Virus record (IMG/VR): IMGVR_UViG_3300035034_003774
Source: a virus
Length of the DNA stretch: 64,000 nucleotides
Direction: 5' to 3' (one strand)
The translations under genes were made by a program, and so were the position numbers. Positions within the stretch are counted from its first letter, which is position 1. The number at the start of each line of letters is the position of its first letter. Below are positions 16,473 to 61,262 of the stretch, piece after piece. The notes under the pieces were generated by a model, which saw only the letters and a list, made by a program, of their open reading frames with translations, made no database searches and was not told the DNA's origin.

Positions 16473-16492
16473 AACAGCTAAATTTATTTAAC

Positions 16493-17864: not shown

Positions 17865-17899
17865 ATATAATTAAAATAATAATATAAGAACAGGACAAA

Positions 17900-18781: not shown

Positions 18782-18794
18782 TAAAATTACCCAT

Positions 18795-19400: not shown

Positions 19401-19403
19401 GTC

Positions 19404-19577: not shown

Positions 19578-19590
19578 TCCTGGTTTTTTT
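19568..19590 (+). terminator. rho-independent terminator
   Basis: CCAGGA-ATAA-TCCTGG followed by TTTTTTT. Confidence 0.6.
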
Positions 19591-19603
19591 ATTTAATTTA
19601 AGA

Positions 19604-22538: not shown

Positions 22539-23933
22539 TTAGCAAACACTTTCTTCAGCAGACTCTTGATCTATTTCTCTGATCAAACCACCTTCTTTAT
22601 CGCTTAGGTCCCAATATCTTTCGATGTAATCAATAACTCTCTGCGGGTCTACATCTTTGTGAAATGCTATGTTAGGCCCATGGTTATCAAGATGAACAGA
22701 ATATATCCCATCCCACTCACTATTCTCAATTCCAGTTGCAGTATTTACACCGCACTCATTTGAACCGCACTCAAAGTTTTTCTGACTTCTTATAGTAAAA
22801 GGAGGTCTGGTCCCATCCATTTTCCTGGGACAATGAAAATGCACAATTGAATGGGCTTTATCACCAAGTTCATCGTAAATCATTTGCTGAGTATGCTCAC
22901 CAACTGAAGGCTTTCCTCCCATGGCAATTATCTCACCACCTTCTCTGAATATCTTTGCCATCCCATTTTCAAACACATCATTGTGATCTACTTTTCTAAT
23001 AGATGATATACGATCAAAGTCTTCTCCCTCAACCTTACATCCGAAGTGACCAGAAGTCTTTCCTCTAAATGGCTTATATGCACCATTATTAATTAAGTGC
23101 CTTAGCACTGGAGCAAAGTTATGTGGTATTTTCTTAAGAGAAGAAAGCTTCATTATCTCAGCAGGCTCACCCTCTGTTAATCCAGTTCTATTAAACGTAA
23201 GCTGAATTCTTGAGACGATCATCTCAGAAAATGTCTTTAAAGCTTCATCTCTTGTATTTTCTTTGTAAGGATATTCTTCTGGAGTGATCACCAAATTAAT
23301 CTTATCCTTGATGTCATTTGCGAAAACAAGATTTGAACTATTTTTCTTTAAAGACTCAAGACCTCTTCTATATGTCTCGTCATGACCAACTCCAGCCGTT
23401 GTCTTAAATGATGCAAGGAAAATATCCTTTCGATTCTTTCTAATTTTAGAAAGAATCTTATCATCAGCCTCCATATTTACTGTTATTTTATCCTTAGAGG
23501 ATAATCTTTCTTGATCTTTTCCAAAACTGGTAATACTTCTGTAACTAACGTCTAATTCATCTGTCCTAACAAGACTGGTTGGCTTGAAATCACATACGGC
23601 TGCAGCCATTACAATACATCTTGTGTCTGCCTGATAAATTAGGTAGTCTACAAGTTTTGATAGGTCTTCGTTGGTTTCTAATTTGGACAAACCAGCTTTA
23701 TGATAAATATCATGGTATTCATAATAGCAGGAGTAATCTCCAACACAACCTTCTGCCATTTTTGTAGGCAACACATGAACTTCGTAATCATCAATAGCTC
23801 CTGCGTCAACAATAGCTCCTGCAATGTACTCAGATAAAGTATCTCCCACCTTTCCATAAGCTGGTGCACAAACTGAAAAATGAGGTGCTATATGCACCAT
23901 TGTACCGCCTGTAATAATATAAATCTTCTTCAT
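22539..23933 (-). CDS. protein with N-terminal phosphopantothenate-cysteine ligase (CoaB/DFP)-like Rossmann domain and uncharacterised C-terminal domain
   Basis: IYIITGGT...APAYGKVG and ...CIVMAAAVCDFKP parallel the CoaB motifs ITAGPT..SSGKMG and ..IGCAAVADYRP. Confidence 0.4.
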   Translation of the reverse strand: MKKIYIITGGTMVHIAPHFSVCAPAYGKVGDTLSEYIAGAIVDAGAIDDYEVHVLPTKMAEGCVGDYSCYYEYHDIYHKAGLSKLETNEDLSKLVDYLIYQADTRCIVMAAAVCDFKPTSLVRTDELDVSYRSITSFGKDQERLSSKDKITVNMEADDKILSKIRKNRKDIFLASFKTTAGVGHDETYRRGLESLKKNSSNLVFANDIKDKINLVITPEEYPYKENTRDEALKTFSEMIVSRIQLTFNRTGLTEGEPAEIMKLSSLKKIPHNFAPVLRHLINNGAYKPFRGKTSGHFGCKVEGEDFDRISSIRKVDHNDVFENGMAKIFREGGEIIAMGGKPSVGEHTQQMIYDELGDKAHSIVHFHCPRKMDGTRPPFTIRSQKNFECGSNECGVNTATGIENSEWDGIYSVHLDNHGPNIAFHKDVDPQRVIDYIERYWDLSDKEGGLIREIDQESAEESVC

Positions 23934-24202: not shown

Positions 24203-24639
24203 TTATCAGCTTTGCTTTTTTCTATTTCACTTGGAATAACTCTATCCTCAAAAAATTGAAGCATTAGATCATATTGAAACTTCATCGTAACATTAACCTC
24301 CTTTAAGGAATCATTTTTATCCTTAAGTCTTTCGATCTCGTTTTTCATTCCAGCACGCTCTTCAACCTCCTGCTTTATAAACATCCCTGATGTCAAAAGA
24401 GTATCACCAACCTCATGCTTATAGTTCGTATAATAATATGTGGTTCCAGAATAACTTCTTATCTTAACCTCATACTTATACTTATCACTCGTGGAGCATT
24501 GGCCACAATCCTCCTCCTTGACGTCATCGTTAGCATTTACCTGCTCAACTACAAGTGTCTTCTCTATCATGGATACACTATCTTCGCAGGAAGATAAAAC
24601 CACGGCTAATGCACATAAAAATAAAAATTTAAACTTCAT
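24199..24639 (-). CDS. putative lipoprotein
   Basis: signal peptide with LSSC lipobox-like cysteine. Confidence 0.35.
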   Translation of the reverse strand: MKFKFLFLCALAVVLSSCEDSVSMIEKTLVVEQVNANDDVKEEDCGQCSTSDKYKYEVKIRSYSGTTYYYTNYKHEVGDTLLTSGMFIKQEVEERAGMKNEIERLKDKNDSLKEVNVTMKFQYDLMLQFFEDRVIPSEIEKSKADK

Positions 24640-25465
24640 CGTTTTCTGTATTTAATATAGGTTCAGCATCCTCAAAGATAACCTCTGCCTTGTTAGTAAT
24701 TTTGTTAAATATTGGGTATTCTACAACCTTAATCGAACTTCTCTCCTTAACAAGATCAGGATTAGTTCTAGCATGATGTTTTTCAGGAAGGCTATCAAGC
24801 TCTTCAGTTGTAAATGGCTCTGATGTCTTAATTCTTTTCACATAAACACCACGCTTATATTTAACTGGAAGGTCGTTCCAATTAACACCCTCCTCAAGCA
24901 TTAGCTTATCTTGCATCTGAGACCCATTCAACCCATGCAACTGACTGGTAGGGTTACCATGAGAAAAATAACTTTGAGCAAGCATTGAAATACTATTCTT
25001 TACAGCGTCATTCTCACGCCACAATAACTGAACAACTGCATCATGAAGAGTTGGTGTCTGATAGATTCTTGCATCAAATACAGCGTTCTTATTATGATCT
25101 GGAAGAAGCTCTCTCCTTCTGTCATTAAAGAAGTTTACCAACTTACCTGGTAGCTTAGATAAAATCTTCTGCTTCCTACCATCGTGATATATTGAACTCT
25201 TTCTGTCAGGTGAGTACAGAATTAGAGTGATCTCATCGCTCTGTGTGTATCCTACAACCGCATTAGTCTCCTCAACCAAGAATTGAGTGGTTTCAGTCAT
25301 TAATTGATTTAAACCCTCATCAAACGGCTTATCCAAGCCTCTAGTCCATTTACTGAAATTGTTTCCATCCAGTCTAATAATAACTGGTAAGGTGGGAATC
25401 ATTATTTCTGGAGAAAAGTTTTTTTCCAGCCACTTACACCAGTCACCCATTGTTTCGAAATCCAT
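24629..25465 (-). CDS. Thg1-like protein (tRNA-His guanylyltransferase family, 3'-5' nucleotide addition)
   Basis: VIIRLDGNNFSKWTRGL, GYTQSDEITLIL, conserved Thg1 core over ~250 aa. Confidence 0.6.
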   Translation of the reverse strand: MDFETMGDWCKWLEKNFSPEIMIPTLPVIIRLDGNNFSKWTRGLDKPFDEGLNQLMTETTQFLVEETNAVVGYTQSDEITLILYSPDRKSSIYHDGRKQKILSKLPGKLVNFFNDRRRELLPDHNKNAVFDARIYQTPTLHDAVVQLLWRENDAVKNSISMLAQSYFSHGNPTSQLHGLNGSQMQDKLMLEEGVNWNDLPVKYKRGVYVKRIKTSEPFTTEELDSLPEKHHARTNPDLVKERSSIKVVEYPIFNKITNKAEVIFEDAEPILNTENDEV

Positions 25466-25875: not shown

Positions 25876-26415
25876 TCAAATAAAAACCAGATCATCAAAT
25901 AAAAACCAGTGATCTTTATTTTTACTCAAATTATAAGGAACTTCTTCTTCTTTTTCCTCACTCCAATCAAACCATGGATTAGAGTTAACGCTTGTTTGGT
26001 TCCAGGCTACAGCATCAATATCTTCATCCTGGATGAATGACTCAATAATATCAGCTTGTTCAAGTATTGATGACTTTCCTTCATAAGTCTTGTCAAAACT
26101 TCTCATTGCCTTGATAATTTTGTCAAAATTCTCTCTTTTAACAACAACTCTATCAAAAGTAGTTGCCATAACAATCCTCTCATCAATAGGGACATCTTTG
26201 TTATTAGCAAGTTCCCAAATCTCTTTAACACCATTTGGGTCCATTAAAGAGGTTCTTGATAATTTCTGAGTCGGGTCCCATGGAGCACTTTTTAATGCTA
26301 AGTGTTTCTCCTCCATTAATCCCCAAACTGCCATAGCACTTCTAAATGCATTCTTAACATCTTTTGTGTGATTTGACTCTTGATTTTTAAAAGCAACTAT
26401 TTCTGTATAACTCAT
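25876..26415 (-). CDS. hypothetical protein
   Basis: 179-aa ORF. Confidence 0.3.
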   Translation of the reverse strand: MSYTEIVAFKNQESNHTKDVKNAFRSAMAVWGLMEEKHLALKSAPWDPTQKLSRTSLMDPNGVKEIWELANNKDVPIDERIVMATTFDRVVVKRENFDKIIKAMRSFDKTYEGKSSILEQADIIESFIQDEDIDAVAWNQTSVNSNPWFDWSEEKEEEVPYNLSKNKDHWFLFDDLVFI

Positions 26416-26879
26416 TGAGCGTATTTTATTAGTGTAATTAATTCTTCAAATTCTTCTACTTGTGGCACATCATATTTATCGCACACAACATCTATATTAC
26501 CTTTTCTCCAGAATCCATCTGGACAATACACAACAAGCTTACCACTCCTTGCATACATACCAAACTCAAGTAATGATATGGGAGATATTGTATCTGGGGC
26601 CAAATATAAGATAATTAAATCAGAAGCTTCAAGCCCATCAAGTTCCCACTCTACCTGCTCCTTAAACTTAACATTATCAATTGATTGTTCCCAAGATGAA
26701 TCCCAGTCTTCTCTTCTTGGGTTTATGATAATCTTCTTAGTATCTTTTACGGCATCTATTATTTTAGCTTGCCAATCCTCAGCCTTACCCATCTCAATTG
26801 AACCTGCAAGAAAAATCTTCTTATAGTGCTTTGGCTTATCAAATAGCTTTGCTGGAGGTGTTAATACTATCGCTTCCAT
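26412..26879 (-). CDS. nucleoside 2-deoxyribosyltransferase-like (NDT/DNPH1-Rcl fold) protein
   Basis: KIFLAGSIEMGKAEDWQ N-terminal motif and ...LLEFGMYARSGKLVVYCPDG catalytic Glu region. Confidence 0.5.
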   Translation of the reverse strand: MEAIVLTPPAKLFDKPKHYKKIFLAGSIEMGKAEDWQAKIIDAVKDTKKIIINPRREDWDSSWEQSIDNVKFKEQVEWELDGLEASDLIILYLAPDTISPISLLEFGMYARSGKLVVYCPDGFWRKGNIDVVCDKYDVPQVEEFEELITLIKYAQ

Positions 26880-26919
26880 GTTTATCTTTATATGGTTATA
26901 ATATTTTATTCATACTTCT

Positions 26920-26948
26920 ATTATACGCTACAAATATAATAATGTTAC
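26920..26948 (-). promoter_or_regulatory. sigma70-like promoter GTAACA-N17-TATAAT
   Basis: minus strand TGTAACATTATTATATTTGTAGCGTATAAT, immediately after the terminator T-tract. Confidence 0.5.
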
Positions 26949-26975
26949 AAAAAAAGGCGCCAAATATATGGCACC
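26949..26975 (-). terminator. rho-independent terminator after SPFH gene
   Basis: GGTGCC-ATATATTT-GGCGCC then TTTTTTT on minus strand. Confidence 0.55.
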
Positions 26976-26998
26976 TTTTCACTACTGAACAGAGTAAG

Positions 26999-27940
26999 TT
27001 ATGATTCAGTAAGCAATTCCTTTCCCTTACCTTTATTATCATCAACTTTATCAGAAGCAATTGAAGCAGCTGTATACTGATCAATAACACCTTCTCCTTT
27101 AGCTGAATGAGGCATGAATATAACATTATTATTATCTCTGGCAATATCTCTCATAGTATCAAAGTACTGTGTAATCTCAACAAATCTCATTACATCTTCC
27201 TGCTTGATTCCAGTGTCCTTAGAGAATGTTCCAATTGAGTCCTTGAATCCTTCGATTATTGCATCTCTTTGTTGAGCAATACCCTTACCTTGAAGCGCTT
27301 TTGATTCAGCCTCAGCCTCTGCTGCTTTAACCTTTCTAATCTTTGCAGCATCACCCTCTTCTTCTGCAGCTCTCTTATCACGAGTTGCAGCATTAATTCT
27401 ATTCATTGCCTCCTTAACACTCTGATCTGGGTCAATATCAACCACAAGAGCATTTTTAATGACATAACCATAGGCTTCAATTGCATGAGAAAGCTGCTTC
27501 ATTACAGCGCTTTCAATATCTTCCTTATTCTCATAAACCTGGTCCAATTCTTTTCTTGGAACTTCTGCACGAATTTCATTAAATACATATGATCTAATCT
27601 GACGCTCGAAATCTGATAATTCATATACAGAATTAATAATAGACTCATCATTGTCCCTTACATAATACTGGACCGCCACTTTAATGTGAACAGAAACCTT
27701 ATCCTTTGTGATAGTTTCAACATCTACACCTATTTCATCAATTCTAAGGCTTTGTCTATAAGCCACTCTTTCTATGAAAGGTATTTTTAGTGTAAGCCCA
27801 GACCTTCTCAAACCCTTAAACTTACCAAACCTCTCAATTACCGCAACTTCTTTCTGTTTTGTGATTACTATAGAAGAAATCAACGCAATAAACGAAATGA
27901 ATCCTAATATACTAAGTGTAACAATACTTCCAACTCCCAT
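26999..27940 (-). CDS. SPFH/band-7 (stomatin/prohibitin-like) membrane protein
   Basis: N-terminal TM then SPFH domain (VAVIERFGKFKGLRRSGLTLKIPFIERV...), C-terminal coiled coil. Confidence 0.7.
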   Translation of the reverse strand: MGVGSIVTLSILGFISFIALISSIVITKQKEVAVIERFGKFKGLRRSGLTLKIPFIERVAYRQSLRIDEIGVDVETITKDKVSVHIKVAVQYYVRDNDESIINSVYELSDFERQIRSYVFNEIRAEVPRKELDQVYENKEDIESAVMKQLSHAIEAYGYVIKNALVVDIDPDQSVKEAMNRINAATRDKRAAEEEGDAAKIRKVKAAEAEAESKALQGKGIAQQRDAIIEGFKDSIGTFSKDTGIKQEDVMRFVEITQYFDTMRDIARDNNNVIFMPHSAKGEGVIDQYTAASIASDKVDDNKGKGKELLTES

Positions 27941-28051
27941 TTTCTATTTTTTTTGATTAATAATGACAAATGTAACTAATTATTATTTACGAAAGAAAAT
28001 TTTTGTCATAATTATTCTTTCTCTGCATTAAAAATGCTAATTTATGCTGCG

Positions 28052-29023
28052 CTATGTTAATGGCAGATTTCTCCTTTCTCTTAATACGTGGTTCTTAATG
28101 ATTGGAACACCTTTCTGAATCATTTCAAAAAATGTTTCTAAATCTTCTATCTCTGGAATTATTACATTATTATGTATTGCCGCCTCTGCATTAAAGAAAA
28201 AGTACATACTCATAAGTGGTGATACAAAAACATCCGCAGACTTTTCTTCTGGATACATATGAAAGTCTCCGAACATTCCTTCTGCAGCAGGTATTACTCT
28301 TGTCTGAACGTGGCTCTTTCTATGTCCGTTTTGACTAAAAGAATGAAGACAAGCGTCTTTATATTCTTTGAAAGAATCCATATAGTCAACAAGGCTGCAG
28401 CTTCCATAGAAACCACCTTGCCTACTAATTTTAGCCATATTCTCAAGCGCAAGATAGTGAGAAAGGTTTTCTTCTATCTCGGTTCCAAACCCAATGCATG
28501 CCAACATCTTTATTGGAACACCTACACCCTTTACTGCCGCAAGAGTAATAGTATCCTCCATCATTGTGCCACTTCCATCTTCGTCTCCAACCATTATAGA
28601 GTCAACGCCCCCATCCACAAGAAGTATAGCTCCAATGTCAAGATGCCTTACAAGTGTGTTTAGTGAATTTGTATATTCCTTAAGTGTTTGATCTCTTTTG
28701 AATGTCCATACATTTACATCCAACCCTTTTGCTTCCTTAAAGTAAGATGATAAATACATCTCTGGGAAGTTCTCTGAGGCGGAATGAATATTGCCAGTAA
28801 CTCCAACACAAGTATTTGTCATCGGAACTACTTCAGTAAAATTAGACATGGTATCCCAGGGACTATGAGTATAGTTCCCCAAATGAACATTAACTCCCAT
28901 TTTCTGCAAACTGGAGTGAATGGGTATTCCTGCAAATACATCATATCCCCCACCCATTCCAAGGATTAGGACATTTTTTGCCTGCCTCAATTTAAAGGCT
29001 ACTGATACTGGTAAATTAAGCAT
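28052..29023 (-). CDS. hypothetical protein (conserved-looking, glycine-rich Rossmann-like N-terminus)
   Basis: NVLILGMGGGYDVFAGIP...LLVDGGVDS. Confidence 0.3.
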   Translation of the reverse strand: MLNLPVSVAFKLRQAKNVLILGMGGGYDVFAGIPIHSSLQKMGVNVHLGNYTHSPWDTMSNFTEVVPMTNTCVGVTGNIHSASENFPEMYLSSYFKEAKGLDVNVWTFKRDQTLKEYTNSLNTLVRHLDIGAILLVDGGVDSIMVGDEDGSGTMMEDTITLAAVKGVGVPIKMLACIGFGTEIEENLSHYLALENMAKISRQGGFYGSCSLVDYMDSFKEYKDACLHSFSQNGHRKSHVQTRVIPAAEGMFGDFHMYPEEKSADVFVSPLMSMYFFFNAEAAIHNNVIIPEIEDLETFFEMIQKGVPIIKNHVLRERRNLPLT

Positions 29024-29025
29024 AA

Positions 29026-29283
29026 TTAAATAATTTTTATAGACATTATTACATATCCCTTCTTGAGTCCGAAATCTCCATCTTCAGCCCTGAGTATATT
29101 AGTTACTTTAACCGCAACTTCACTACCAGTGTATTCGCTTTTTTTTGGCTCATATTCTCTCAATCCAAGAGTATCTCCAGTCTTGAAGTCTCTGTCATCC
29201 TTTCTAATCTCAAATGTCTTGAAACCATAAACTATAGAGTTATAATGATCTGGATGAATCTTTAAGTTGTGATAATTACTCAT
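29026..29283 (-). CDS. ASCH / PUA-like (DUF3850-type) small RNA-binding fold protein
   Basis: HPDHYNSIVYGFKTFEIRKDDRDFKTGDTLGLREYEP matches the ASCH pattern. Confidence 0.45.
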   Translation of the reverse strand: MSNYHNLKIHPDHYNSIVYGFKTFEIRKDDRDFKTGDTLGLREYEPKKSEYTGSEVAVKVTNILRAEDGDFGLKKGYVIMSIKII

Positions 29284-29893
29284 TGAGTATAACCTTTCTA
29301 TTTTTCAACTCAAAAAATGATCTTGCACAAGCCTTAACATCATCAAGAGCATCGTGAGCTCCTTCAAACTCTTCATCAAATAACTTAACGTGAAGTTCAG
29401 TTAAGGTTGGCCATTTATATGTACCATATCTAAATGGAGGCATCTTGCAAAATCCTGTAGTCTCCTGCATTGTGCAAACTTTTCTTGGCTGATTTTCTGG
29501 AGCGACATCAACTCTTATAAATTCAGCACCAATAACATTAATATCAAAATTCATGTTATGAGCAATTAAATAATCAGCTTTTTTCATGTCTTCTAAAAAC
29601 TCTTCAATCGCTTCTAATAATGGTATACCAAATTCTTCACATCTCTCAGTTGACATATTGTTCTCAACGAAAAAGTTAGGATTTCTATTACCTTGCTTGG
29701 TCAGTTCCTCAACCGTTGGTATTGTCCAACCATCTGGCTTTATAAGGTGGCTCTTTTCATTGATGAGATTCTCATTCTCATCATATAATTGCCATCCTAA
29801 TTGTGTAACTCTTGGCCAATTATCCAAGTCGTAAACGGGTGCTTTAAAGTTTTTAGCCATCCCGTTTGTCTCTGTGTCAAAAAATAAATACAT
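29276..29893 (-). CDS. DEDDh 3'-5' exonuclease (DnaQ/epsilon-like)
   Basis: Exo I FFDTETNG, Exo II LIAHNMNFD, Exo III GAHDALDD. Confidence 0.65.
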   Translation of the reverse strand: MYLFFDTETNGMAKNFKAPVYDLDNWPRVTQLGWQLYDENENLINEKSHLIKPDGWTIPTVEELTKQGNRNPNFFVENNMSTERCEEFGIPLLEAIEEFLEDMKKADYLIAHNMNFDINVIGAEFIRVDVAPENQPRKVCTMQETTGFCKMPPFRYGTYKWPTLTELHVKLFDEEFEGAHDALDDVKACARSFFELKNRKVILNE

Positions 29894-29943
29894 AATTATA
29901 GTTTTGTTGTCTATGGTGACAAATGTAAGGAAAATTTAGATAA

Positions 29944-30618
29944 CTAAGAACTTTTGGATAACTTTTTAATTTTATCTCTTAATATTGAGGCTTTTTCAAA
30001 GTCTTCTTCTCTAATAGCCTTTTCAATACTCAATTCTAAAGACGAAATATCATCTTCTTGTGGCATAAATAAATCAAAACCAGTAGGAGATTTGAAGGTC
30101 GATCTTTTTTCCAAATACTCTTTTAATTCTTCCGCAGCTTCATTAAATGCCTCAACACTACTTTCCTTACTGGATACGTATTCGTTAAGATACTCCTTAT
30201 TCATTAGTATCCAATTGTTAATGCCCTCATTTATCGTCGATTCAATTTCAGACTTTTGCCACCATTCTTCAAAATCCCAGGAGTTTATACCCTTATCTGA
30301 TTTTACTTTTTTAGAATATTTTGATGAAAAGTGTTTAACCTTTTTTTCGAATGTGTTTATAAAATTAGAAATAATTACATCTCCACTTAATGTTCTGTAT
30401 CTATCTACACTTCTAAACTCTGGATAGTAAATGTGTTCAAAATCATCAATCAAAAAATCAGCAACATACTTTTTCCCATCAATAGTTATATTAAGCTTTA
30501 ATAAAGACTGTTTATTAAAATACTTATACTTAAAATCTAAAATATCAAATTCAAGCGGTATTAACCTAACTTCGTTTTCTGATTCTTGCTTTCTTACCCT
30601 CTTTGTATACTCCCCCAT
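29944..30618 (-). CDS. hypothetical protein with C-terminal UVR domain
   Basis: EKAIREEDFEKASILRDKIKKL matches UvrB/UvrC UVR motif. Confidence 0.4.
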   Translation of the reverse strand: MGEYTKRVRKQESENEVRLIPLEFDILDFKYKYFNKQSLLKLNITIDGKKYVADFLIDDFEHIYYPEFRSVDRYRTLSGDVIISNFINTFEKKVKHFSSKYSKKVKSDKGINSWDFEEWWQKSEIESTINEGINNWILMNKEYLNEYVSSKESSVEAFNEAAEELKEYLEKRSTFKSPTGFDLFMPQEDDISSLELSIEKAIREEDFEKASILRDKIKKLSKSS

Positions 30619-30700
30619 TGTCTCTTAAATTAATCTCTTTGATAAAATTAATGAAAAAAAATGTCAGTAACAAATTTTTACTTTTATATAAAACAAATAA

Positions 30701-31483
30701 TCACCCCCTTTTAACTATCAAGCTAACAAATTGATTAAACACCTCTGAAAACTCTGGCACCTCATTTATAATAGGCATAACACCATCAATTATTTCCTTT
30801 GGAATATCTTTATAATAAGCTTCCGCTATAGAACCTGCCATTGCAGCTATTGTGTCTGAATCTCCCCCTATTGAGATAGCCTTCCTGATACAGTCTTCAT
30901 AATTATCTGATTCCAGAAAAGCAATTATTGACTCTGGGACAGAACCCTTGCAGCTTACATCAAACTCATATGTAGGACGAATCTCATCAATAGTTCTATC
31001 AAGATCATACTTGAACTCATTTTCAATCATCTGCTTGATGACTTCCTTGCTCGAACCAGTTCTGGCCATATAAATAGACGCAGCAATTGCTTGAGCACCT
31101 TTAATACCTTCTGGATGGTTGTGAGTAACCTCTGCTGATAGCTTCGCCTGTTCCATAACCTCATTGAGGGTGTCAAAAAGCCACCCAACTGAAGACACCC
31201 TCATAGCAGAACCATTGCCCCAGCTATCGTAAGGACCAGCGTTGTCATCATCAAGCCAAGCAATAAATGACGAGCCATATCCAGCAAGTGGATGAGCTCT
31301 ACCGTACTCCCTGATCGTATCAGCATAATCCTTACCATTCATTATAGCATCAGCTACAGCAATTGTAAGCGTTGTATCATCTGTATATCTACAGTCATCT
31401 CTAAACAAAGGGAATTCAGTGTGCTTCACGTTTATCCCTTCATACACAGACCCTATTACGTCTCCACAAATCGCTCCTAACAT
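30701..31483 (-). CDS. ADP-ribosylglycohydrolase (ARH/DraG family)
   Basis: MLGAICGDVIGSVYEG N-terminal motif, later DSDTIAAMAGSIAEAYY. Confidence 0.6.
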   Translation of the reverse strand: MLGAICGDVIGSVYEGINVKHTEFPLFRDDCRYTDDTTLTIAVADAIMNGKDYADTIREYGRAHPLAGYGSSFIAWLDDDNAGPYDSWGNGSAMRVSSVGWLFDTLNEVMEQAKLSAEVTHNHPEGIKGAQAIAASIYMARTGSSKEVIKQMIENEFKYDLDRTIDEIRPTYEFDVSCKGSVPESIIAFLESDNYEDCIRKAISIGGDSDTIAAMAGSIAEAYYKDIPKEIIDGVMPIINEVPEFSEVFNQFVSLIVKRG

Positions 31484-31845
31484 TATAGTAATTTTGAACC
31501 GTAAATATAATCACTTGGGTTAACAAATAATCCACCGTCATGATGTTCCGCAACCATTATCATAACTTCACTTTTCACCCCTTTAATAACCGATGGCTTA
31601 AGGTTCATAACAAATGGACACTGTATACCAATCAAATCATTTGGCTCATGTGTCTTCCCTAAGTTTGTAAAAGCAGTTTTTTCGAAATTTATTTCCTCAC
31701 CATTTTCATCAATATCATCAAACTGAACTCTCAATTCAAGTCCGTAGCTATTAGGAACTTTCTTGGCCTCATTTATAATTCCAATTCTTATATCAAGTTT
31801 CTTCTCTATTTCAAGGAACTCACTAAATTCAATTTCTTCTTTCAT
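31483..31845 (-). CDS. hypothetical protein
   Basis: 120-aa ORF, ATGA overlap. Confidence 0.3.
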   Translation of the reverse strand: MKEEIEFSEFLEIEKKLDIRIGIINEAKKVPNSYGLELRVQFDDIDENGEEINFEKTAFTNLGKTHEPNDLIGIQCPFVMNLKPSVIKGVKSEVMIMVAEHHDGGLFVNPSDYIYGSKLL

Positions 31846-31856
31846 TTCGTATATTT

Positions 31857-32057
31857 TTAATCTTCAACACCAATTTCTCTAAGATAATTATGAAGGTTAT
31901 CCATAGCATCTTTTGCCTTTAAACAAAGCTCTTTCAATTTTTGATCACTGCCATCCATTGAATCTTCTCTGTATCCATAGTTTTGAACCCAATATCCAAA
32001 ACCTTCATTTTCAAGCTCCCCATACAACTGGTCTTTATCCTCGTCTGTTAATGGCAT
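31857..32057 (-). CDS. hypothetical small protein
   Basis: 66-aa ORF. Confidence 0.25.
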   Translation of the reverse strand: MPLTDEDKDQLYGELENEGFGYWVQNYGYREDSMDGSDQKLKELCLKAKDAMDNLHNYLREIGVED

Positions 32058-32061
32058 AATT

Positions 32062-32379
32062 TTAATTTTTATCTGATTTATATTCTATTATCCTAAACCT
32101 AAGGCTGTATTCATCAACCTCAACTTTATAGCTATCTTTCATCTTGTCATTTACACAACTGAGAACATACGATAAATAAGTAGGGTCTCCATTGATTATT
32201 CTAAAATGCTTTTCATCTTCAGTCATAAGCTCCCACTCTTCATTAACAGATTTTTTAAGCTCTTTTAGAGTGAATTCATAAGTATAATCATCAGGGTCAT
32301 GAAATTCTCCCCCAACTCTCTTTGGTTTTGTGTTAAACCAGTTGCTATCATCTATCACTTTCATGTCAAAATTGTCCAA
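32062..32379 (-). CDS. hypothetical protein
   Basis: 105-aa ORF. Confidence 0.3.
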   Translation of the reverse strand: MDNFDMKVIDDSNWFNTKPKRVGGEFHDPDDYTYEFTLKELKKSVNEEWELMTEDEKHFRIINGDPTYLSYVLSCVNDKMKDSYKVEVDEYSLRFRIIEYKSDKN

Positions 32380-33355
32380 TTAAATTCTCTTTAACATAAC
32401 CACCATCAATACCAGTTACTTCTGAAAAATCTATATCACCATATCTTTCTCTATCTTTCAAGCAGCTGTGTAAAACCTTTTCCTTAGCTTCCTCTAAAGT
32501 CTTAACTCCAGAGCCCAGTGAAATAGAATATGTTCCGCCCATTCCGCAATTATAACTCATGGTTCCTTTTCCCCAGTGAGGAATAGGAGTGACTATAAAT
32601 TCACCGTTCTCATCTTCATAACCAAATTCAAGCTGAAATCTGTGCCAAACTTTTGACCACCACCTTGAATACCTCTTGGTATATTTAGTGTAATCAATTC
32701 TGCACTTATATTTTCCTTCAGGCATTTCAATTTCATCATTACCCTTAAAAACAACTTCACGCTCAACCTTGTCCTTTCCTTTTAGAAATCTTACAAAATC
32801 AAAATTACCATGCCTCCATTTTGGGATTCCATTATGCCACTCGTCTGGGTCAGTCCAAAATCTCCACCACATTTGATAATGATGAAAACTTAAGTCGATT
32901 TCTCTGCTTGCTGTTCTAATCCATCCCTTATCTTTAGTTCTCGATCTACCCTTGAGCTTTTTGTTTTTATTCATTTTGGCGTAGTACTCTGCTGTCGCTC
33001 CAGATGGTTTGTCAGTTACATATTCACCATATTCACCAGCTTCTCTTGTTTCTTTTTGCATTGCCTCTCTAATAGCACTTGCTTCTTTGTCAGAAAACTG
33101 ATTATATTCCTTTGTATAAATCCACTCAGGAAACAATCCTTCAAATGATATATAAAAAGTAAATAATAGCCAAAATGTAAAAGTAACCTCACCTTCACTG
33201 CCATTTACATTAACTCCCCAATGAAAACTTGGATTTGAACATACTTGAGCTCTTAAGCTCTTATTTCCATCTCCAATGAACCATACCCATCTTGAGTTAA
33301 CCCAGGATTTTTCGTTTTCTTCTTTTGCGTAATTTTTATAACTTATCCAACCCAT
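32366..33355 (-). CDS. hypothetical Trp-rich protein
   Basis: 329-aa ORF. Confidence 0.3.
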   Translation of the reverse strand: MGWISYKNYAKEENEKSWVNSRWVWFIGDGNKSLRAQVCSNPSFHWGVNVNGSEGEVTFTFWLLFTFYISFEGLFPEWIYTKEYNQFSDKEASAIREAMQKETREAGEYGEYVTDKPSGATAEYYAKMNKNKKLKGRSRTKDKGWIRTASREIDLSFHHYQMWWRFWTDPDEWHNGIPKWRHGNFDFVRFLKGKDKVEREVVFKGNDEIEMPEGKYKCRIDYTKYTKRYSRWWSKVWHRFQLEFGYEDENGEFIVTPIPHWGKGTMSYNCGMGGTYSISLGSGVKTLEEAKEKVLHSCLKDRERYGDIDFSEVTGIDGGYVKENLIGQF

Positions 33356-33358
33356 TTT

Positions 33359-33592
33359 TTAAATATTAATTTTATAACCTAATGATTCTTGTGTATTTGG
33401 ATTAATTTCACAATAAATTTCAAAACAAACACTACTGTACTCACTTGATACCTTTATAGGATTCATAATCTCTTCATTTTCTTTTAGTTCAGATAACTTA
33501 GATTTATGATTATCAACAGCATTTAATAATTCTCTCAAAGTTTGTTCTGTAATAACTATTTTTCCTCCAGATATTTCTTCAATTCTTGACAT
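33359..33592 (-). CDS. hypothetical small protein
   Basis: 77-aa ORF. Confidence 0.25.
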   Translation of the reverse strand: MSRIEEISGGKIVITEQTLRELLNAVDNHKSKLSELKENEEIMNPIKVSSEYSSVCFEIYCEINPNTQESLGYKINI

Positions 33593-33602
33593 ATAATTAT
33601 TT

Positions 33603-33974
33603 TTATTTTTCTATATAAACTGTAAACTTCACATGATCTGTACATGTTTGGTGATATACAGAATCAAACCTATCTCCAAACTTCTGCTTTATAGCTTCAA
33701 AAACAAAAAACCAATGCTCAGGGTCAGATTCATCAATACCGATTTCAGAATAACAATGAACACCATCTTCTCTTGGCTCACAAGTATAATGACTTGGGAG
33801 GAGTTTTTCCATATATTTAGTTTCTTCAATCATCATGAAACATTTCTTTTTGATGTGCTTCAACCTCAATTTTACCAGACCTAATGTCTTCCCTAACTCT
33901 TTCAATAGCTTCACCAAGCCAGTTAGTTCCTTTCCATTTTGATCTATCCTTAGCACGAGGGTCATCAGCTGCAA
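33603..33974 (-). CDS. hypothetical protein (5' end overlaps NADAR gene; true start may be internal)
   Basis: 123-aa ORF overlapping 33826-33974. Confidence 0.25.
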   Translation of the reverse strand: MQLMTLVLRIDQNGKELTGLVKLLKELGKTLGLVKLRLKHIKKKCFMMIEETKYMEKLLPSHYTCEPREDGVHCYSEIGIDESDPEHWFFVFEAIKQKFGDRFDSVYHQTCTDHVKFTVYIEK

Positions 33975-34359
33975 GACCTATGCCCCAAATAAAATCTTTT
34001 GGACTTGCCTCTACAATTGTTCTGTCTCCAGTAAACAATAGCTCTTCAAGCATATCTTTATTCTGAGTAAACTTAGCAACATTACCATCGTATACAATAT
34101 CACGACAATAGGCTTCCCAAATCTTCTTATCAAAATTTTTCACCTTTCTGCCAAGAGCCTTTTGATCTCTTGGATTTTTTGAATTCATTACTTGCTCCGC
34201 AATGTCATAATCATGGAACATTAGAGCTTTCTTATACATCATGTATTGCTCGCAAGTATTGAAGGTAACTCCATCAATTATGAATGTTGACCTAGCCCAT
34301 TGGCTGAAACTACCACCCCAAAAGAAAGCAAACTCTTCTTTATTTTCTACTTCCTCCAT
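33826..34359 (-). CDS. NADAR / YbiA-like (DUF1768) N-glycosidase family protein
   Basis: FFWGGSFSQW...FNTCEQYMMYKKALMF...GDRTIVEASPKDFIWGIG matches the NADAR signature. Confidence 0.6.
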   Translation of the reverse strand: MEEVENKEEFAFFWGGSFSQWARSTFIIDGVTFNTCEQYMMYKKALMFHDYDIAEQVMNSKNPRDQKALGRKVKNFDKKIWEAYCRDIVYDGNVAKFTQNKDMLEELLFTGDRTIVEASPKDFIWGIGLAADDPRAKDRSKWKGTNWLGEAIERVREDIRSGKIEVEAHQKEMFHDD

Positions 34360-34376
34360 TTTTTAATTTTTATAAT

Positions 34377-34916
34377 TTAATCCCACCTTGAATTTGTGGT
34401 TTTTGTATTTTTGATTTCACTCTCAGTTGTTTCTCTTATAACAAAACCAGAGCCATCACACAATTCACATTGGTCTTCATCACCAGAATATTTCCAATGA
34501 ATTTCATCCCCATCAATTGTAAAGTGATTCATAAAATTTCTTGAATCCCATATGTTATCAGTAAGTTGAAGGGTTTCTATTTCTAAAATTTTGTGATATA
34601 AAATGTCATCATTGTCTTCCTCATTCTCGATGAACTTCTCAACAATTTCTTTAACCTTTTTAAATTCTTCCTCGGTGATTTCACTAACTCCAGATTCATA
34701 AAAATAAATTGGGTCACTCATGTGACCATCAAAATGACTATAAAATGTGGTGTTATAAAACCCACCATATGTCTTGTTGTTCTTTTTAAAAGTTTTACCA
34801 AAAAGGGCAAATCCGTTTTCATTCGCTTTATTTAAGATGTCTTTCTTCTTTTTCTTAAGCTCTTTGATTTCTTTTTCTACTGAGTCATACTCAGCTTGTA
34901 ATTCTGATTTTTTCAT
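34377..34916 (-). CDS. hypothetical protein
   Basis: 179-aa ORF. Confidence 0.3.
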   Translation of the reverse strand: MKKSELQAEYDSVEKEIKELKKKKKDILNKANENGFALFGKTFKKNNKTYGGFYNTTFYSHFDGHMSDPIYFYESGVSEITEEEFKKVKEIVEKFIENEEDNDDILYHKILEIETLQLTDNIWDSRNFMNHFTIDGDEIHWKYSGDEDQCELCDGSGFVIRETTESEIKNTKTTNSRWD

Positions 34917-34930
34917 TTGTTTTTCTAATT

Positions 34931-35323
34931 TTATAAATCGTAAAATATTTTTGCATCACAATAATCTTCATCTCCATCATCTGGCATATTTAATACGCAA
35001 AACCTCCCGTATATTATATGAAATTCATATCCGTTAGTACAGGTAATGGAAATAGACTTTCTGTCCTTTTTTTTCTTGAATATGGCCATAAACCTATAAT
35101 GATATTTATAGCTATCTATCTCAAACTTTTTGTATTCGCCAAAAACATTAGCTTTTACAAAGCCAAATTTGGTATTAACCTTTATCTTGCCTGACGTATC
35201 ATTATCAATAGGCTCACAATCATCAGAGTTCTCTATCATTTCGTATGTAGAGTAACTTGAAAAATGCCTTACGTCTGTGCAGCTTGACAGGGCCAAGATC
35301 AATATTATAGCAATTCTAATCAT
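34931..35323 (-). CDS. putative lipoprotein
   Basis: signal peptide ...LALSSC. Confidence 0.3.
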   Translation of the reverse strand: MIRIAIILILALSSCTDVRHFSSYSTYEMIENSDDCEPIDNDTSGKIKVNTKFGFVKANVFGEYKKFEIDSYKYHYRFMAIFKKKKDRKSISITCTNGYEFHIIYGRFCVLNMPDDGDEDYCDAKIFYDL

Positions 35324-35817
35324 ACTATTTTTTCTTTTAAAGCACTCATGTCTTCACGAAGTTCATCTTCAGCATCCTCATATCCAGCTTCTTTATGGAA
35401 TTTCTTAAAAATATCATCATCCTCCTGTATAACACTAATCATAGAGTATATAATATCCATTTCTTCTTCTTTTAAAGAAACTTGGTTTAATTCACTTTCG
35501 TCTATTTCAACGAACTCAAGTTCATGATTAAAGGAATGCTGTCCCTGGATAAAATAACCCCCTTTTGCGAATCCATAAAAATCCTTTGTTTCAAGATATA
35601 CATCGTAATCAACCATAGCGCTCTTACCAGAGTCAAAACTTCCAGTATCAGGGTCTGCCATTATATACATTCCCTCATAACCTTCTAACTCAGGCTCTCT
35701 CTCTGCTTCGTTAGCATCGGAAAGATACTGTATTGTATTTGCATCTAATTTAATCTTTCTCTTTTTCATTTTCGTGTAATTTACATATTTCACCCCAATC
35801 AACCACAACTGGCTCAT
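35320..35817 (-). CDS. hypothetical acidic protein
   Basis: 165-aa ORF. Confidence 0.3.
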   Translation of the reverse strand: MSQLWLIGVKYVNYTKMKKRKIKLDANTIQYLSDANEAEREPELEGYEGMYIMADPDTGSFDSGKSAMVDYDVYLETKDFYGFAKGGYFIQGQHSFNHELEFVEIDESELNQVSLKEEEMDIIYSMISVIQEDDDIFKKFHKEAGYEDAEDELREDMSALKEKIV

Positions 35818-36544
35818 TAGTTGTATAATACTGAAGGTTTAACACACTGCAGTTTATCAATCTAGTCACCTTTCCGTCCTCATGAGGAATGTCATCAATT
35901 CCATACGCCTCATGAATATGTCCAAAAGAACAAATCTTAGGCTTAATTTCTTTAATCCTGTTTGTTAGATCAACACAACCAACCATGTCGCCATTTCTAC
36001 ACCTTTCAAGAAATGTTCCTGATGGAGGGCCATGAACTACAACAATATCAGTACCCTCTTCTATGAGGTCCCAGTGCTGTTTAATTCCATTGGCAACATC
36101 CTCCTGCCCATTACACCTAACAGCGTTAAATGCCCAGTTATGAAACCAAGGTGTCCATGGACTACCGAAAATCTTAATACCCTCAATCTCTATTGTTTCA
36201 TTCTCAAGATACACAATGCCTTCTGGTATAATATCTCTTGGGTTTTCACCTGGAGTAAGACTTCTATTTCTCTTATGAGTTGGCTCAAACCAAAAATCGT
36301 GATTTCCAGCAATAAAAATCTTATGTTTATGAGGTAGTTTTTCATACCAATCTAAAAACTCCTTTATCTCACTTCTTTGTCCTCGCAATGAAATATCACC
36401 GCAACAAATGATCATATCTCCATCTGGTATTTCAGATTCATAGTGAAGTCCATGAGGGTCACTGAAAAAAACTATTTTAAAATCTTTATCTTCCATTGTC
36501 CTAGTTTCCATACTCAGCACTAACTGCTCCATGAAGAGATTCAA
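35750..36544 (-). CDS. calcineurin-like metallophosphoesterase
   Basis: FFSDPHG, ICCGDIS, FIAGNHDF, VVVHGPP motifs. Confidence 0.6.
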   Translation of the reverse strand: MNLFMEQLVLSMETRTMEDKDFKIVFFSDPHGLHYESEIPDGDMIICCGDISLRGQRSEIKEFLDWYEKLPHKHKIFIAGNHDFWFEPTHKRNRSLTPGENPRDIIPEGIVYLENETIEIEGIKIFGSPWTPWFHNWAFNAVRCNGQEDVANGIKQHWDLIEEGTDIVVVHGPPSGTFLERCRNGDMVGCVDLTNRIKEIKPKICSFGHIHEAYGIDDIPHEDGKVTRLINCSVLNLQYYTTNEPVVVDWGEICKLHENEKEKD

Positions 36545-36689
36545 GCGTATCCTTTACATCTTCTATCTCCATCCCCGCATTGATCATCTTATCAGCACAC
36601 TCTATAAATGTTTCATAACCAGTGCTCCACCACCCCTTATATCCAGGTAGATCATTTTCTATCCAACTAATTAATTCTTCTCTATTCAT
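36501..36689 (-). CDS. hypothetical small protein
   Basis: 62-aa ORF. Confidence 0.25.
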   Translation of the reverse strand: MNREELISWIENDLPGYKGWWSTGYETFIECADKMINAGMEIEDVKDTLESLHGAVSAEYGN

Positions 36690-37243
36690 ATTCTTATGTC
36701 TTCATCTTCATCAATAGCATCAACTTCTCTTAAATGCTTATTTACTCTATCAACAGCAAGCATATGATGTCCAGCACCACCTCTAACTGATTCAAGCTGC
36801 CTATAAGCACTTGACGATACGTGAGCATATACTGGGTCACAAAACATGGTGATAATATTCATATTTGGAAACTGGTCCCACATATGACGAGTCTGGTTAT
36901 ACTCATAATCATAATCATGACCATTCCTCAAACCTCTTATCACAACTACCTCGTCGTAACCCTCCTCTTCCTTTTTTCTAACAAAATCTGTAAGAAAACC
37001 AATATATCCCTCCACTCTCTTAGATGGAAGTTGTTGTCTTAGAACAGATAGTTTCCCCTCTAAAATATCCTGCATCGCACTTTGGGCTGATTCAGAATTA
37101 CGAATATCAGATGGTACTTTCGATCTATTTACGCCAACAGCTACAATAACTTCATCAAACAACCTTTCAGTCTTCTCAAGAATATTTTGATGACCGACTG
37201 TGAATGGGTTAAAACTTCCAGGGTATATTGCTAATCTTTTCAT
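36686..37243 (-). CDS. H-x-G-H cytidylyltransferase-superfamily nucleotidyltransferase (phosphopantetheine adenylyltransferase CoaD-like or NadM-type NMN adenylyltransferase)
   Basis: LAIYPGSFNPFTVGHQNILEK..FDEVIVAVGVN and later VSSS.YR motif. Confidence 0.55.
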   Translation of the reverse strand: MKRLAIYPGSFNPFTVGHQNILEKTERLFDEVIVAVGVNRSKVPSDIRNSESAQSAMQDILEGKLSVLRQQLPSKRVEGYIGFLTDFVRKKEEEGYDEVVVIRGLRNGHDYDYEYNQTRHMWDQFPNMNIITMFCDPVYAHVSSSAYRQLESVRGGAGHHMLAVDRVNKHLREVDAIDEDEDIRI

Positions 37244-56763: not shown

Positions 56764-56792
56764 TTTATACGTTAATTTTCTAAAATTGTTAC
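56764..56792 (-). promoter_or_regulatory. sigma70-like promoter GTAACA-N17-TATAAA
   Basis: minus strand GTAACAATTTTAGAAAATTAACGTATAAA; -10 only 6 nt from the annotated ATG 56758, supporting a downstream true start. Confidence 0.45.
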
Positions 56793-61174: not shown

Positions 61175-61182
61175 GTATATTA

Positions 61183-61213
61183 AAATAAAAAAGAGCCCCT
61201 TTTGGAGACTCTT
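61183..61213 (-). terminator. rho-independent terminator after UVR-domain gene
   Basis: AAGAGTCTCC-AAAA-GGGGCTCTT hairpin then TTTTATTTTA on minus strand. Confidence 0.45.
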
Positions 61214-61262
61214 GTGATTTCGCTCTCCTTGGAGCAAAAATAACGAAAATATTTTAATAGTA

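Follow-up and report, generated by a model that had tools for sequence, protein, structure and literature searches.

Phage genes that act on NAD and ADP-ribose have been described as a network in jumbo and medium-sized phages (Iyer, Burroughs, Anantharaman and Aravind, 2022; PMC9503650) and in a survey of jumbo phages (PMC7824862). In the portions of these two accounts consulted here, KptA and 2H esterases form the NAD-dependent wing of phage RNA repair. We have analysed a 64,000 nt stretch of viral DNA, IMG/VR virus record IMGVR_UViG_3300035034_003774 (hereafter the window, meaning this stretch at its full length), in which a first-pass annotation had recognized a set of six genes for handling NAD or ADP-ribose. 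These encode an ADP-ribosylglycohydrolase (ARH), a NADAR protein, a nicotinamidase, a nucleoside 2-deoxyribosyltransferase (NDT)-like protein, a nucleotidyltransferase with an H-x-G-H motif, and the RNA 2′-phosphotransferase Tpt1 (KptA). The set was suggested to reverse host ADP-ribosylation, to rebuild NAD after NAD-depleting defence, or to recycle the by-product of Tpt1.

Several described systems invite comparison with this gene set. All phage NADARs that have been tested remove guanine-linked ADP-ribose and counter DarT1/DarTG1 (PMC11257639, PMC11125620). NADARs act on ADP-ribose linked to bases (guanine) in DNA and RNA and not on phosphate ends, where ADP-ribose, including that added by Tpt1/KptA, is removed by ARH-like and macrodomain enzymes (PMC11833690). 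Three phage NAD reconstitution pathways (NARPs) are known, of which NARP1 pairs Adps with Namat, NARP2 pairs Nampt with a nicotinamide mononucleotide (NMN) adenylyltransferase (NMNAT; also as NMNAT-Nudix), and NARP3 pairs PnuC with NadR (10.1101/2024.02.11.579819, PMC13464706). Finally, the TerY-P triad is defined by a VWA protein, a PP2C phosphatase and a Ser/Thr kinase that are encoded by neighbouring genes (PMC11090510).

All six open reading frames (ORFs) lie on the minus strand at the coordinates originally assigned to them. Profile hidden Markov model (HMM) searches, which the first-pass annotation had proposed as a check, uphold all six domain assignments, with the nicotinamidase falling below its Pfam cutoff and being recognized through PDB matches and motifs. 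Catalytic motifs are intact in the ARH, NADAR, Tpt1, nicotinamidase-like and deoxyribosyltransferase-like proteins. The interval 26412-37243, originally given as the location of the set, holds four of the six genes, whereas the whole set extends over 34 kb (26.4-60.6 kb), where its members are interleaved with roughly 55 others among about 60 co-directional genes. With 33-39% GC the window is AT-rich, and from about 21 kb to 64 kb its minus-strand genes are packed co-directionally with tiny or negative gaps. In one sense the set is beyond chance, as these genes are found again in related contigs of huge phages.

Gene order is common to contigs of up to 456 kb from IMG/VR, ENA and JGI (the IMG/VR loci compared here carry L numbers). 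A 66.5-kb IMG/VR contig keeps nearly the entire order of the window between 31.5 and 64 kb, its proteins being 45-78% identical to those of the window. Two further contigs, of 141 and 195 kb, have large parts in common with the window, and more distant contigs of 201-456 kb retain sub-blocks. In contig LR756500, the genes for the nucleotidyltransferase, ARH, the nicotinamidase-like (PncA-like) protein with a TerY-P triad, Tpt1 and NADAR all fall within 100 kb in a different order. Megablast of positions 26412-37243 against GenBank phages gave no match.

Judged by this conservation, the set splits into separately conserved blocks and would not constitute one pathway. The first block consists of the nucleotidyltransferase, which resembles phosphopantetheine adenylyltransferase (PPAT), an MPPED2-like phosphoesterase and NADAR in all close relatives, with ARH present in some. 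The second is Tpt1 with an AAA_28 protein, the third the PncA-like gene with the TerY-P triad, and the fourth the NDT-like gene alone. The PPAT-like gene directly adjoins NADAR in two distant lineages, where 6 and 14 nt separate them. Among 78 viral PPAT-like loci, 17 have a same-strand NADAR gene within 6 kb, and ARH lies between or beside the two in L099, L100-102 and L122. We lean, by a modest amount, towards the explanation that these blocks belong to the accessory arm of a very large phage, devoted to RNA and translation upkeep and to counter-defence, in which the NAD and ADP-ribose genes are separate modules.

Of the ADP-ribose genes in the set, NADAR (33826..34359, minus strand) is the most conserved, and it is found in all close relatives. 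Its family was called correctly in the first-pass annotation: the protein matches Pfam NADAR with E=2e-52 and passes the YbiA-type model TIGR02464 at 159 bits against a cutoff of 73.7, and its top PDB matches are 8bau and YbiA (2b3w). The motifs EQYMM, VEASP (carrying the YbiA-type Glu) and D-x-x-WGIG are kept across 21 phage homologues. Because the profile match, the catalytic residues and the Glu in the last strand are all present, we assign the protein to the YbiA subfamily of the NADAR superfamily, using the rule that this Glu marks the subfamily (PMC11125620).

The ARH gene (30701..31483, minus strand) is likewise as first annotated, a member of the ARH/DraG family with Pfam ADP_ribosyl_GH at E=4e-36 (125.6 bits, cutoff 26.2) and phrog_6572 at E=3e-55. 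Its metal-site motifs YTDDT and GGDSDT align to those of MJ1187 and ARH3. Its scores with the DraG and Tri1 models are far under the respective cutoffs, so that no equivalog-level assignment is possible. The position of the gene is variable: it is present in L002/L122, L099 and L100-102, is missing from the syntenic site in L004, L006 and L007, and is encoded elsewhere than that site in the 195-kb contig. Observed orders include PPAT-like, ARH, NADAR (L099); tRNA_bind, ARH, NADAR (L100-102); and NADAR, one other gene, tRNA_bind, ARH (the window and L002). The best GenBank protein matches of the ARH, PPAT-like and PncA-like proteins come from uncultured huge phages of 462-735 kb and from Bacteroidota phages. 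The exact ARH protein sequence was retrieved from a single ENA contig of 1.5 kb only.

The gene preceding ARH encodes a stand-alone tRNA-binding protein (31483..31845, minus strand; Pfam tRNA_bind E=9e-9) whose stop codon shares 1 nt with the start of ARH. It adjoins ARH in L001 and L002, lies about 0.6 kb upstream of it in L100-102, and occurs without it in L004, L005 and L085. We considered translational coupling of the two genes as a sign that ARH acts on tRNA and dropped this weak argument, since several relatives have tRNA_bind but no ARH, and in other places ARH is encoded in the absence of tRNA_bind. A UVR (UvrB/UvrC) motif ends two otherwise unannotated minus-strand proteins, one beside ARH (29944-30618) and one beside the AAA_28 gene (61263-61673).

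The nucleotidyltransferase (36686..37243, minus strand; Pfam CTP_transf_like, H-x-G-H, E=4e-9) had been described as a PPAT/NMNAT-type enzyme, of which only the first half stands. The coaD model TIGR01510 aligns to the protein over its full length with E=6e-25, although its 88 bits lie below the equivalog cutoff of 103.3. In contrast, NMNAT models (NadD, NadM and NadR) reach only the first 35-60 or so residues around H-x-G-H with E-values from 5e-5 to 3e-3, the best of them covering residues 5-40 only. All 34 PDB sequence matches are PPATs, as are the top 50 of 50 Foldseek matches of an AlphaFold2 model (pLDDT 87.5), with no NMNAT among them. These profiles and the predicted fold place the protein in the PPAT/CoaD family and not with the NMN adenylyltransferases, and it is best regarded as a PPAT/CoaD-like adenylyltransferase whose acceptor may or may not be phosphopantetheine. 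It belongs to a large metagenomic clade (1811 matches, many on contigs of 100-456 kb, named PPAT by JGI) with the signature PGSFNPFTxGH, RGLRNG, RfmWDq and HVSSS. Substitutions are clade-wide at the FDP position and at those equivalent to L102 and N106, which we take to be phosphopantetheine contacts in PPAT.

Between the PPAT-like gene and NADAR lies a metallophosphoesterase gene (35750..36544, minus strand; Pfam Metallophos E=9e-11), which adjoins the PPAT-like gene in L002-L007 and L085. Its product is a close homologue of mammalian MPPED2 (PDB 3rl4, E=1e-40 over residues 23-249), and MPPED2 is a cyclic-nucleotide phosphodiesterase. A number of distant PPAT-like genes (L109, L129-131, L134, L138, L143, L146, L160, L163 and L164, at about 5.3-6.5 kb in each locus) carry an N-terminal extension of about 200 amino acids with the motif ‘EPHRxYHN ... 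FHDxxYDP ... NE’, which by motif alone looks like an HD-type phosphohydrolase. The extension has no Pfam match and no PDB sequence match; the window has, in parallel, a separate gene for a phosphoesterase next to its PPAT-like gene. In LR745206 and L085, ORFs of 164 and 194 amino acids lie downstream of the PPAT-like genes; we asked whether they encode hidden NADARs, and a clade HMM found nothing in them. A remote DFP/CoaB-like domain protein (22539..23933, minus strand; Pfam DFP E=8e-7) is kept in L002 and L004, reaches 44 bits with PRK06732 (cutoff 265), and has 2gk4 as its sole PDB match (E=7e-6). This similarity is too remote for the gene to count as support for a phage CoA pathway.

Tpt1 (60094..60639, minus strand) was also identified correctly at the outset, with a Pfam match of E=5e-47 and 240.4 bits on the NCBIfam equivalog NF002014, whose cutoff is 239. 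It aligns to PDB 7kw8 with 171 bits, and the motifs of the Arg-His-Arg-Arg tetrad (LRH, IRANQGHS and RHHVHLS) are identical in the alignment, as expected for a NAD-dependent RNA 2′-phosphotransferase. A pattern scan of viral contigs for Tpt1 returned no confirmed relative, and relatives were located only by way of neighbouring genes.

The constant neighbour of Tpt1 is an AAA_28 P-loop protein resembling nucleoside or nucleotide kinases (60608..61273, minus strand; Pfam AAA_28 E=1e-13). The listed ORF is probably about 33 codons too long, with the true start at Met34 (near 61174), because homologues are 180-190 amino acids long and align from this residue; with this start, about 90 nt would separate the gene from the UVR-motif gene upstream of it. 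There are 201 homologues, those listed being 57-81% identical, and JGI labels many of them ‘nicotinamide riboside kinase’. The match to the NadR kinase (RNK) domain is weak and far below cutoff (TIGR01526, E=8e-6). A fold search with a model of the protein (pLDDT 78) gives thymidylate kinases the better E-values (about 1e-5), while NadR (8x7f) is best by TM-score (0.61) and root-mean-square deviation (3.4) at 20% identity; among PHROGs, phrog_2107 ‘thymidylate kinase’ (6e-12) exceeds an NMNAT family (1e-5).

In four other contigs (L013, L093, L094 and L095) AAA_28 either adjoins Tpt1 or is separated from it by a single gene, and in two lineages a gene for a Bestrophin_2 membrane protein lies between them. 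The pair always follows Glu_synthase and CYTH genes and precedes RNase T and Pnkp-type genes. In the window the former are a stand-alone Glu_synthase-domain protein and a CYTH protein (61676-63734, minus strand); such genes also precede the pair in L093-L095, and relatives have a Glu/Gln-tRNA synthetase gene immediately upstream. Tpt1 and AAA_28 sit upstream of RNase T and of Pnkp (54038..56758, minus strand; Pfam PNKP_ligase E=6e-30 plus AAA_33) and Hen1 (56789..58093, minus strand; Hen1_N E=4e-67 plus a methyltransferase domain). Pnkp and Hen1 form a pair for RNA end-healing, sealing and 2′-O-methylation, and both are syntenic in L013 and L094.

Other repair genes accompany these. A Thg1-like 3′-5′ nucleotidyltransferase for tRNA 5′-end repair (24629..25465, minus strand; Pfam Thg1 E=7e-23) is 75-83% identical in L002 and L004 and recurs near NDT-like and NADAR genes of other phages. 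RlaP, a Pol-beta nucleotidyltransferase of RNA-repair pathways (44453..45724, minus strand; Pfam E=7e-23), is conserved in L013, L085 and L087 together with the gene downstream of it. That gene, in the block 43323-45724 (minus strand), encodes a conserved protein of 377 amino acids without a detectable family, which could be a so far unrecognized ligase or repair factor. A 2H phosphoesterase (41354..41959, minus strand; weak Pfam 2H-SAK, phrog_12204 E=5e-18) has two H-x-T motifs (H69 and H148), is kept in L004-L006, L083, L085 and L087, and is a candidate phosphodiesterase for 2′,3′-cyclic phosphates or for ADP-ribose cyclic phosphate. To these come two RNase T-like exonucleases, RNase R, YqeY, LysRS and a tmRNA-like gene. 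RNA/tRNA repair and translation are the predominant functions of the region, and the window carries an unusually dense RNA-repair kit.

The nicotinamidase (52039..52887, minus strand) falls below its profile cutoffs, with 23.4 bits on Pfam Isochorismatase (cutoff 27) and 19 bits on PRK11609 (cutoff 174), yet yeast Pnc1 (2h0r, E=1e-9) is its best solved relative. An Asp-Lys-Cys triad and an Asp/His/His metal site set nicotinamidases apart from other isochorismatase-fold hydrolases. The motifs DaqrDF, DsH, WPeHC, vaKG and shCV align to the residues of Pnc1 that we take, from its structure, to be the catalytic Asp, Lys and Cys and the Asp/His/His zinc site. We therefore refer to a nicotinamidase-like (PncA/Pnc1-type) cysteine hydrolase. 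It is the first gene of a conserved cassette, which continues with a VWA protein (51270-51980; Pfam VWA_2), a PP2C phosphatase (49949-50803; Pfam PP2C_2) and a Ser/Thr kinase (48259-49971; Pfam Pkinase), all on the minus strand. By the neighbouring-gene definition, the genes from 48259 to 51980 fit the TerY-P triad as judged from their domains. VWA directly follows the PncA-like gene in six other loci (L013-L017 and L090), with PP2C and kinase genes next in four of the six, and the complete order is repeated in L013, L014, L015 and LR756500. In L093 and L095 the locus ends with VWA and PP2C genes, which are preceded by a gene for 273-283 amino acids, of suitable size for the PncA-like gene but with no Pfam match. 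A limited reading of the literature brought up no account of PncA in association with TerY-P.

The NDT-like gene (26412..26879, minus strand) encodes a member of PF15891 (Nuc_deoxyri_tr2, E=4e-34; 117.5 bits against a cutoff of 30), in agreement with its original assignment to the deoxyribosyltransferase/DNPH1 fold. The protein matches an uncharacterized structure (PDB 4mcj) at 104 bits and keeps the glutamate of LLEFG. Together with two small downstream genes, it is an insertion relative to L002 and L004, where it is absent between Band7 and Thg1. Homologues occur at 65 unrelated IMG/VR loci, with NADAR within 10 kb in 12, Thg1 in 12 and a metallophosphoesterase in 13. We regard it as a mobile, lineage-specific accessory gene.

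The proposal that the set rebuilds NAD after NAD-depleting defence is not supported. Pfam scans of the roughly 76 ORFs of the window yielded no match to NadV/Nampt, NMNAT, PRPS-like, Nudix, Macro or PnuC families, the transferase is of the PPAT type, and none of the NARPs was matched. Neither the PRPS-like ADP-ribose pyrophosphokinase nor the Nampt-like transferase of NARP1 is found among these ORFs. For NARP2, which requires a nicotinamide phosphoribosyltransferase and an NMN adenylyltransferase, there is no match to the NAPRTase family, and the only HIGH nucleotidyltransferase is the PPAT-type one. For NARP3, in which the PnuC transporter gene lies beside a fused NMNAT-RNK gene, the window has neither PnuC nor such a fusion, its AAA_28 protein being stand-alone.

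The accessory arm that we favour would keep translation and RNA intact and counter host defence. Most likely, judging from family biochemistry, NADAR would strip ADP-ribose from guanines of phage DNA or RNA modified by host ADP-ribosyltransferase toxins, and ARH would take ADP-ribose off proteins or the phosphate ends of nucleic acids. Tpt1 would spend NAD in removing the 2′-phosphates left after healing and sealing of cleaved tRNA or other RNA, and the 2H esterase could either make those 2′-phosphates or open the ADP-ribose cyclic phosphate by-product. Recycling of this by-product, as suggested at the outset, might also occur: a 2H esterase, an MPPED2-like phosphoesterase and NADAR are all encoded, their genes lying 18-26 kb from Tpt1. 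The nicotinamidase-like enzyme would at most convert nicotinamide to nicotinate for the salvage route of the host. It, the AAA_28 kinase and the PPAT-like enzyme are tied only loosely to ADP-ribose removal and RNA repair. The proposed reversal of host ADP-ribosylation is plausible, given that NADAR and ARH keep their catalytic signatures and that the phage NADARs tested to date counter DarT1.

Several observations weigh against this explanation. Our evidence consists of domain identities, intact motifs, gene order with its conservation, and the lack of NAD-synthesis domains in the window; the substrates and physiological roles of all these proteins are what we infer from it, and we count this as a weakness. 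NADAR is of the YbiA type, and the sole physiological role proposed for E. coli YbiA is that of an N-glycosidase acting on riboflavin intermediates (cited in PMC11125620); moreover, de-ADP-ribosylation in vitro does not guarantee protection in vivo (PMC11125620). In the sections of their account consulted, Iyer et al. see phage NADAR and Macro proteins as acting mainly on soluble ADP-ribose derivatives and not on macromolecular adducts (PMC9503650). No ADP-ribosylating toxin has been identified for the host of this phage. In the PPAT-like clade, pantetheine contacts of PPAT are altered, FDP to FNP and the ‘MN’ motif to ‘mW’ (within RfmWDq), and these changes together with the CoaD score below cutoff suggest that the acceptor may be something other than phosphopantetheine. 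Thirteen of the 17 loci with PPAT-like and NADAR genes in proximity belong to one syntenic clade, so this proximity may reflect shared ancestry rather than shared function. Lastly, the window is 64 kb of a larger genome, and NAD-synthesis genes could lie elsewhere in it.

Alternative explanations differ in whether the genes are linked at all and in what they would act upon. The genes might be unrelated accessory genes whose proximity reflects dense co-directional packing and the inherited gene order of the clade. The first-pass annotation held that the set would be coincidental if the transferase proved to be CoaD and the NADAR and ARH proteins lacked catalytic residues; the transferase is indeed CoaD-like, but both ADP-ribose hydrolases keep those residues. 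Coincidence would agree with the mixing of the six genes among chaperones, a protease, a dUTPase, kinases and many unknown genes, with the tendency of the ARH and NDT-like genes to move or drop out between relatives, and with the lack of a PPAT-like/NADAR link in 61 of the 78 loci and in LR756500 and LR745206. However, the groupings of AAA_28 with Tpt1, of PncA-like with VWA, and of PPAT-like (with phosphoesterase) with NADAR persist at 30-50% protein identity in rearranged surroundings, and ARH lies near NADAR in several differing orders, which makes this explanation unlikely. We consider it distinctly unlikely that the MPPED2-like, NADAR, ARH and metallo-β-lactamase (MBL)-fold proteins degrade soluble signals (cyclic ADP-ribose isomers, ADP-ribose-1′′-phosphate, ADP-ribose cyclic phosphate and cyclic mononucleotides) and not macromolecular adducts. 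Every NADAR tested acts on base-linked ADP-ribose, with none shown to cleave signals of the cyclic ADP-ribose type (PMC11125620, PMC11257639, PMC11833690), and ARG domains prefer macromolecular conjugates according to the section of Iyer et al. consulted on this point (PMC9503650, section 3.4.2). Nevertheless, the same authors propose such a role for phage NADAR, Macro, SLOG and Nudix proteins in another section consulted (PMC9503650, section 3.7.4), the metallophosphoesterase is close to MPPED2, and the NDT-like gene lies near NADAR and metallophosphoesterase genes in unrelated phages. The MBL protein (39268-40110, minus strand) can be read either way. It resembles the anti-Pycsar protein Apyc1 below threshold (33 bits, cutoff 50), and there are unmarked Pfam matches to Apyc1 in its L083 and L087 homologues, but its best score is with RNase Z (62 bits, itself far below cutoff), in agreement with a tRNA-processing context.

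A different alternative returns to NAD replenishment by a non-canonical route, in which AAA_28 makes NMN from nicotinamide riboside and the PPAT-derived enzyme adenylylates NMN or nicotinic acid mononucleotide, the two forming a split, non-orthologous analogue of NadR (NARP3). The nicotinamidase would in addition supply the Preiss-Handler pathway of the host from the nicotinamide that defence NADases or Tpt1 set free. The JGI names of many AAA_28 homologues, the superposition of the AAA_28 model on the NadR kinase domain with the weak TIGR01526 match there, the conserved acceptor-side substitutions of the PPAT-like clade including a clade-specific Trp, and the intact nicotinamidase motifs would all fit. 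So would the occurrence of NADAR beside NadM and NadV in phages carrying NAD salvage genes, as reported in the portion of the network study consulted (PMC9503650). In Caulobacter phage C2 a gene annotated PPAT sits 4 kb from NadV; we ruled this out as evidence for NMNAT function, as its product is a canonical FDP-type PPAT and nine genes separate it from NadV. We regard the route as quite improbable, because NMNAT profiles cover only the H-x-G-H N-terminus of the transferase whereas CoaD matches its full length and every PDB and top fold match is a PPAT; thymidylate kinases equal NadR by E-value on the AAA_28 model and phrog_2107 beats the NMNAT family; the window has no PnuC, NadV, PncB or NadE; and the PPAT-like and AAA_28 genes lie 23 kb apart in different conserved blocks. 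It would be a long shot that the PPAT-derived enzyme with a changed acceptor, the NadR-kinase-like AAA_28 protein and the nicotinamidase constitute an undescribed route for regenerating NAD or ADP-ribose nucleotides, a split and non-orthologous counterpart of NARP3 that is physically coupled to NADAR and ARH as the enzymes releasing ADP-ribose.

The remainder of the window offers further observations. Its translation genes include a full-length LysRS (5525-7099, minus strand; 654 bits) and a YqeY/GatB-like protein (42487-43056, minus strand), and a protein of 402 amino acids (40168-41376, minus strand) matches part of ArgRS only (E=3e-15). At 17465-17831 (plus strand) ARAGORN calls a tmRNA whose tag peptide ends in AMAA. 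No RNA family is found across the window at Rfam gathering thresholds, and below threshold this position matches tmRNA_permuted (37.9 bits, E=6e-6) and tmRNA (E=4e-7); it is probably a divergent phage tmRNA. The surrounding interval (15547-21036) is the sole plus-strand block, where GC skew flips, and includes a full sigma-70 factor (17900-18781) that is conserved together with a protein of 244 amino acids (19604-20338) in the distant huge-phage contigs L083 and L087. A second sigma-region-2-like protein is encoded at 10862-11368. The protein encoded at 21268-22386 (minus strand) ends in a type IX secretion system (T9SS) sorting domain (Por_Secre_tail, E=4e-6). This tail weakly indicates that the phage host is probably a member of the Bacteroidota, which agrees with the Bacteroidota-phage affinities of ARH. 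At the left end, minus-strand genes encode an HSP90-like HATPase (313-1953), a full RNase R/II (3181-5124; RNB E=1e-115) and an R2K-clade ATP-grasp protein (7329-8204). ClpP, DnaJ, AAA ATPases and a dUTPase are also encoded in the window. PHROG searches with ten ORFs lacking annotation returned a single family, itself of unknown function.

If the favoured explanation of an accessory arm is true, the window is one more case of very large phages bundling RNA repair with removal of ADP-ribose marks, and its value is mainly in annotation. As reagents it yields a NADAR of the YbiA type and an ARH, both from a huge phage with a probable Bacteroidota host, as well as a conserved AAA_28/Tpt1 pair and a nicotinamidase joined to a TerY-P triad. 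Should the PPAT-like enzyme that travels with NADAR make no dephospho-CoA, it would represent a new nucleotide-transfer step in phage-host conflict over NAD and ADP-ribose. On limited literature reading, the PPAT-like/NADAR association, the PncA-like gene with TerY-P, and the AAA_28/Tpt1 pair seem to be undescribed. The part of the jumbo-phage survey consulted does not mention nicotinamidase, isochorismatase, pantetheine or CoaD (PMC7824862).

Compared with bacterial CoaD, the phage transferase has the same fold, a full-length sequence match and the nucleotide-binding motifs H-x-G-H, RGLR and SSS. It differs in its score (88 bits, below 103.3), in about 13 additional residues after strand 2, in the clade motifs FNP and RfmWDq, and in a phage-specific genomic context in which the co-conserved ‘CoaB-like’ gene is only remotely DFP-like. 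With NARP1-3 the window has in common the theme of NAD-centred conflict, a protein with weak resemblance to the NadR kinase domain and an adenylyltransferase of the HIGH superfamily, whereas the defining enzymes, the transporter, the phosphoribosyltransferase and the PRPS-like enzyme are missing and the transferase is of the PPAT type. AdfN and other anti-DarTG1 phage NADARs (PMC11257639; also PMC11543638, PMC11125620) are, like the window protein, stand-alone phage NADARs with a conserved catalytic core. The window protein is YbiA-type (last-strand Glu, passing TIGR02464) and not the His type of T4 gp30.3 or the DarT1-linked Asp type, and its conserved neighbourhood is different.

In RNA repair, the window has in common with the phage KptA/Tpt1 and 2H systems and with bacterial Pnkp/Hen1 a full Tpt1 tetrad, and 2H, Pnkp/Hen1, RlaP and Thg1 genes in one arm. 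Here, however, the fixed partner of Tpt1 is the AAA_28 protein, which resembles small-molecule kinases, and not a ligase or the 2H esterase (18 kb off), and no ligase that leaves a 2′-phosphate at the junction was identified in the window. The description of the gene combination as unusual was overstated, as NADAR, ARG, KptA and 2H already figure among jumbo-phage RNA-repair genes in the portions consulted of PMC9503650 and PMC7824862. Relative to the NAD and ADP-ribose network as surveyed there, the window has a PPAT-type transferase beside NADAR instead of NadM or NadR, with an MPPED2-like gene between them, its nicotinamidase-like gene is joined to the TerY-P triad, and Macro, Nudix, NadV and SLOG are absent from it. 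In other respects the repertoire, comprising NADAR, ARG/ARH, KptA/Tpt1, 2H and a calcineurin-like phosphoesterase, is the same, and as in those surveys the genes of the window sit among the early, host-manipulation and RNA-repair genes of large phages.

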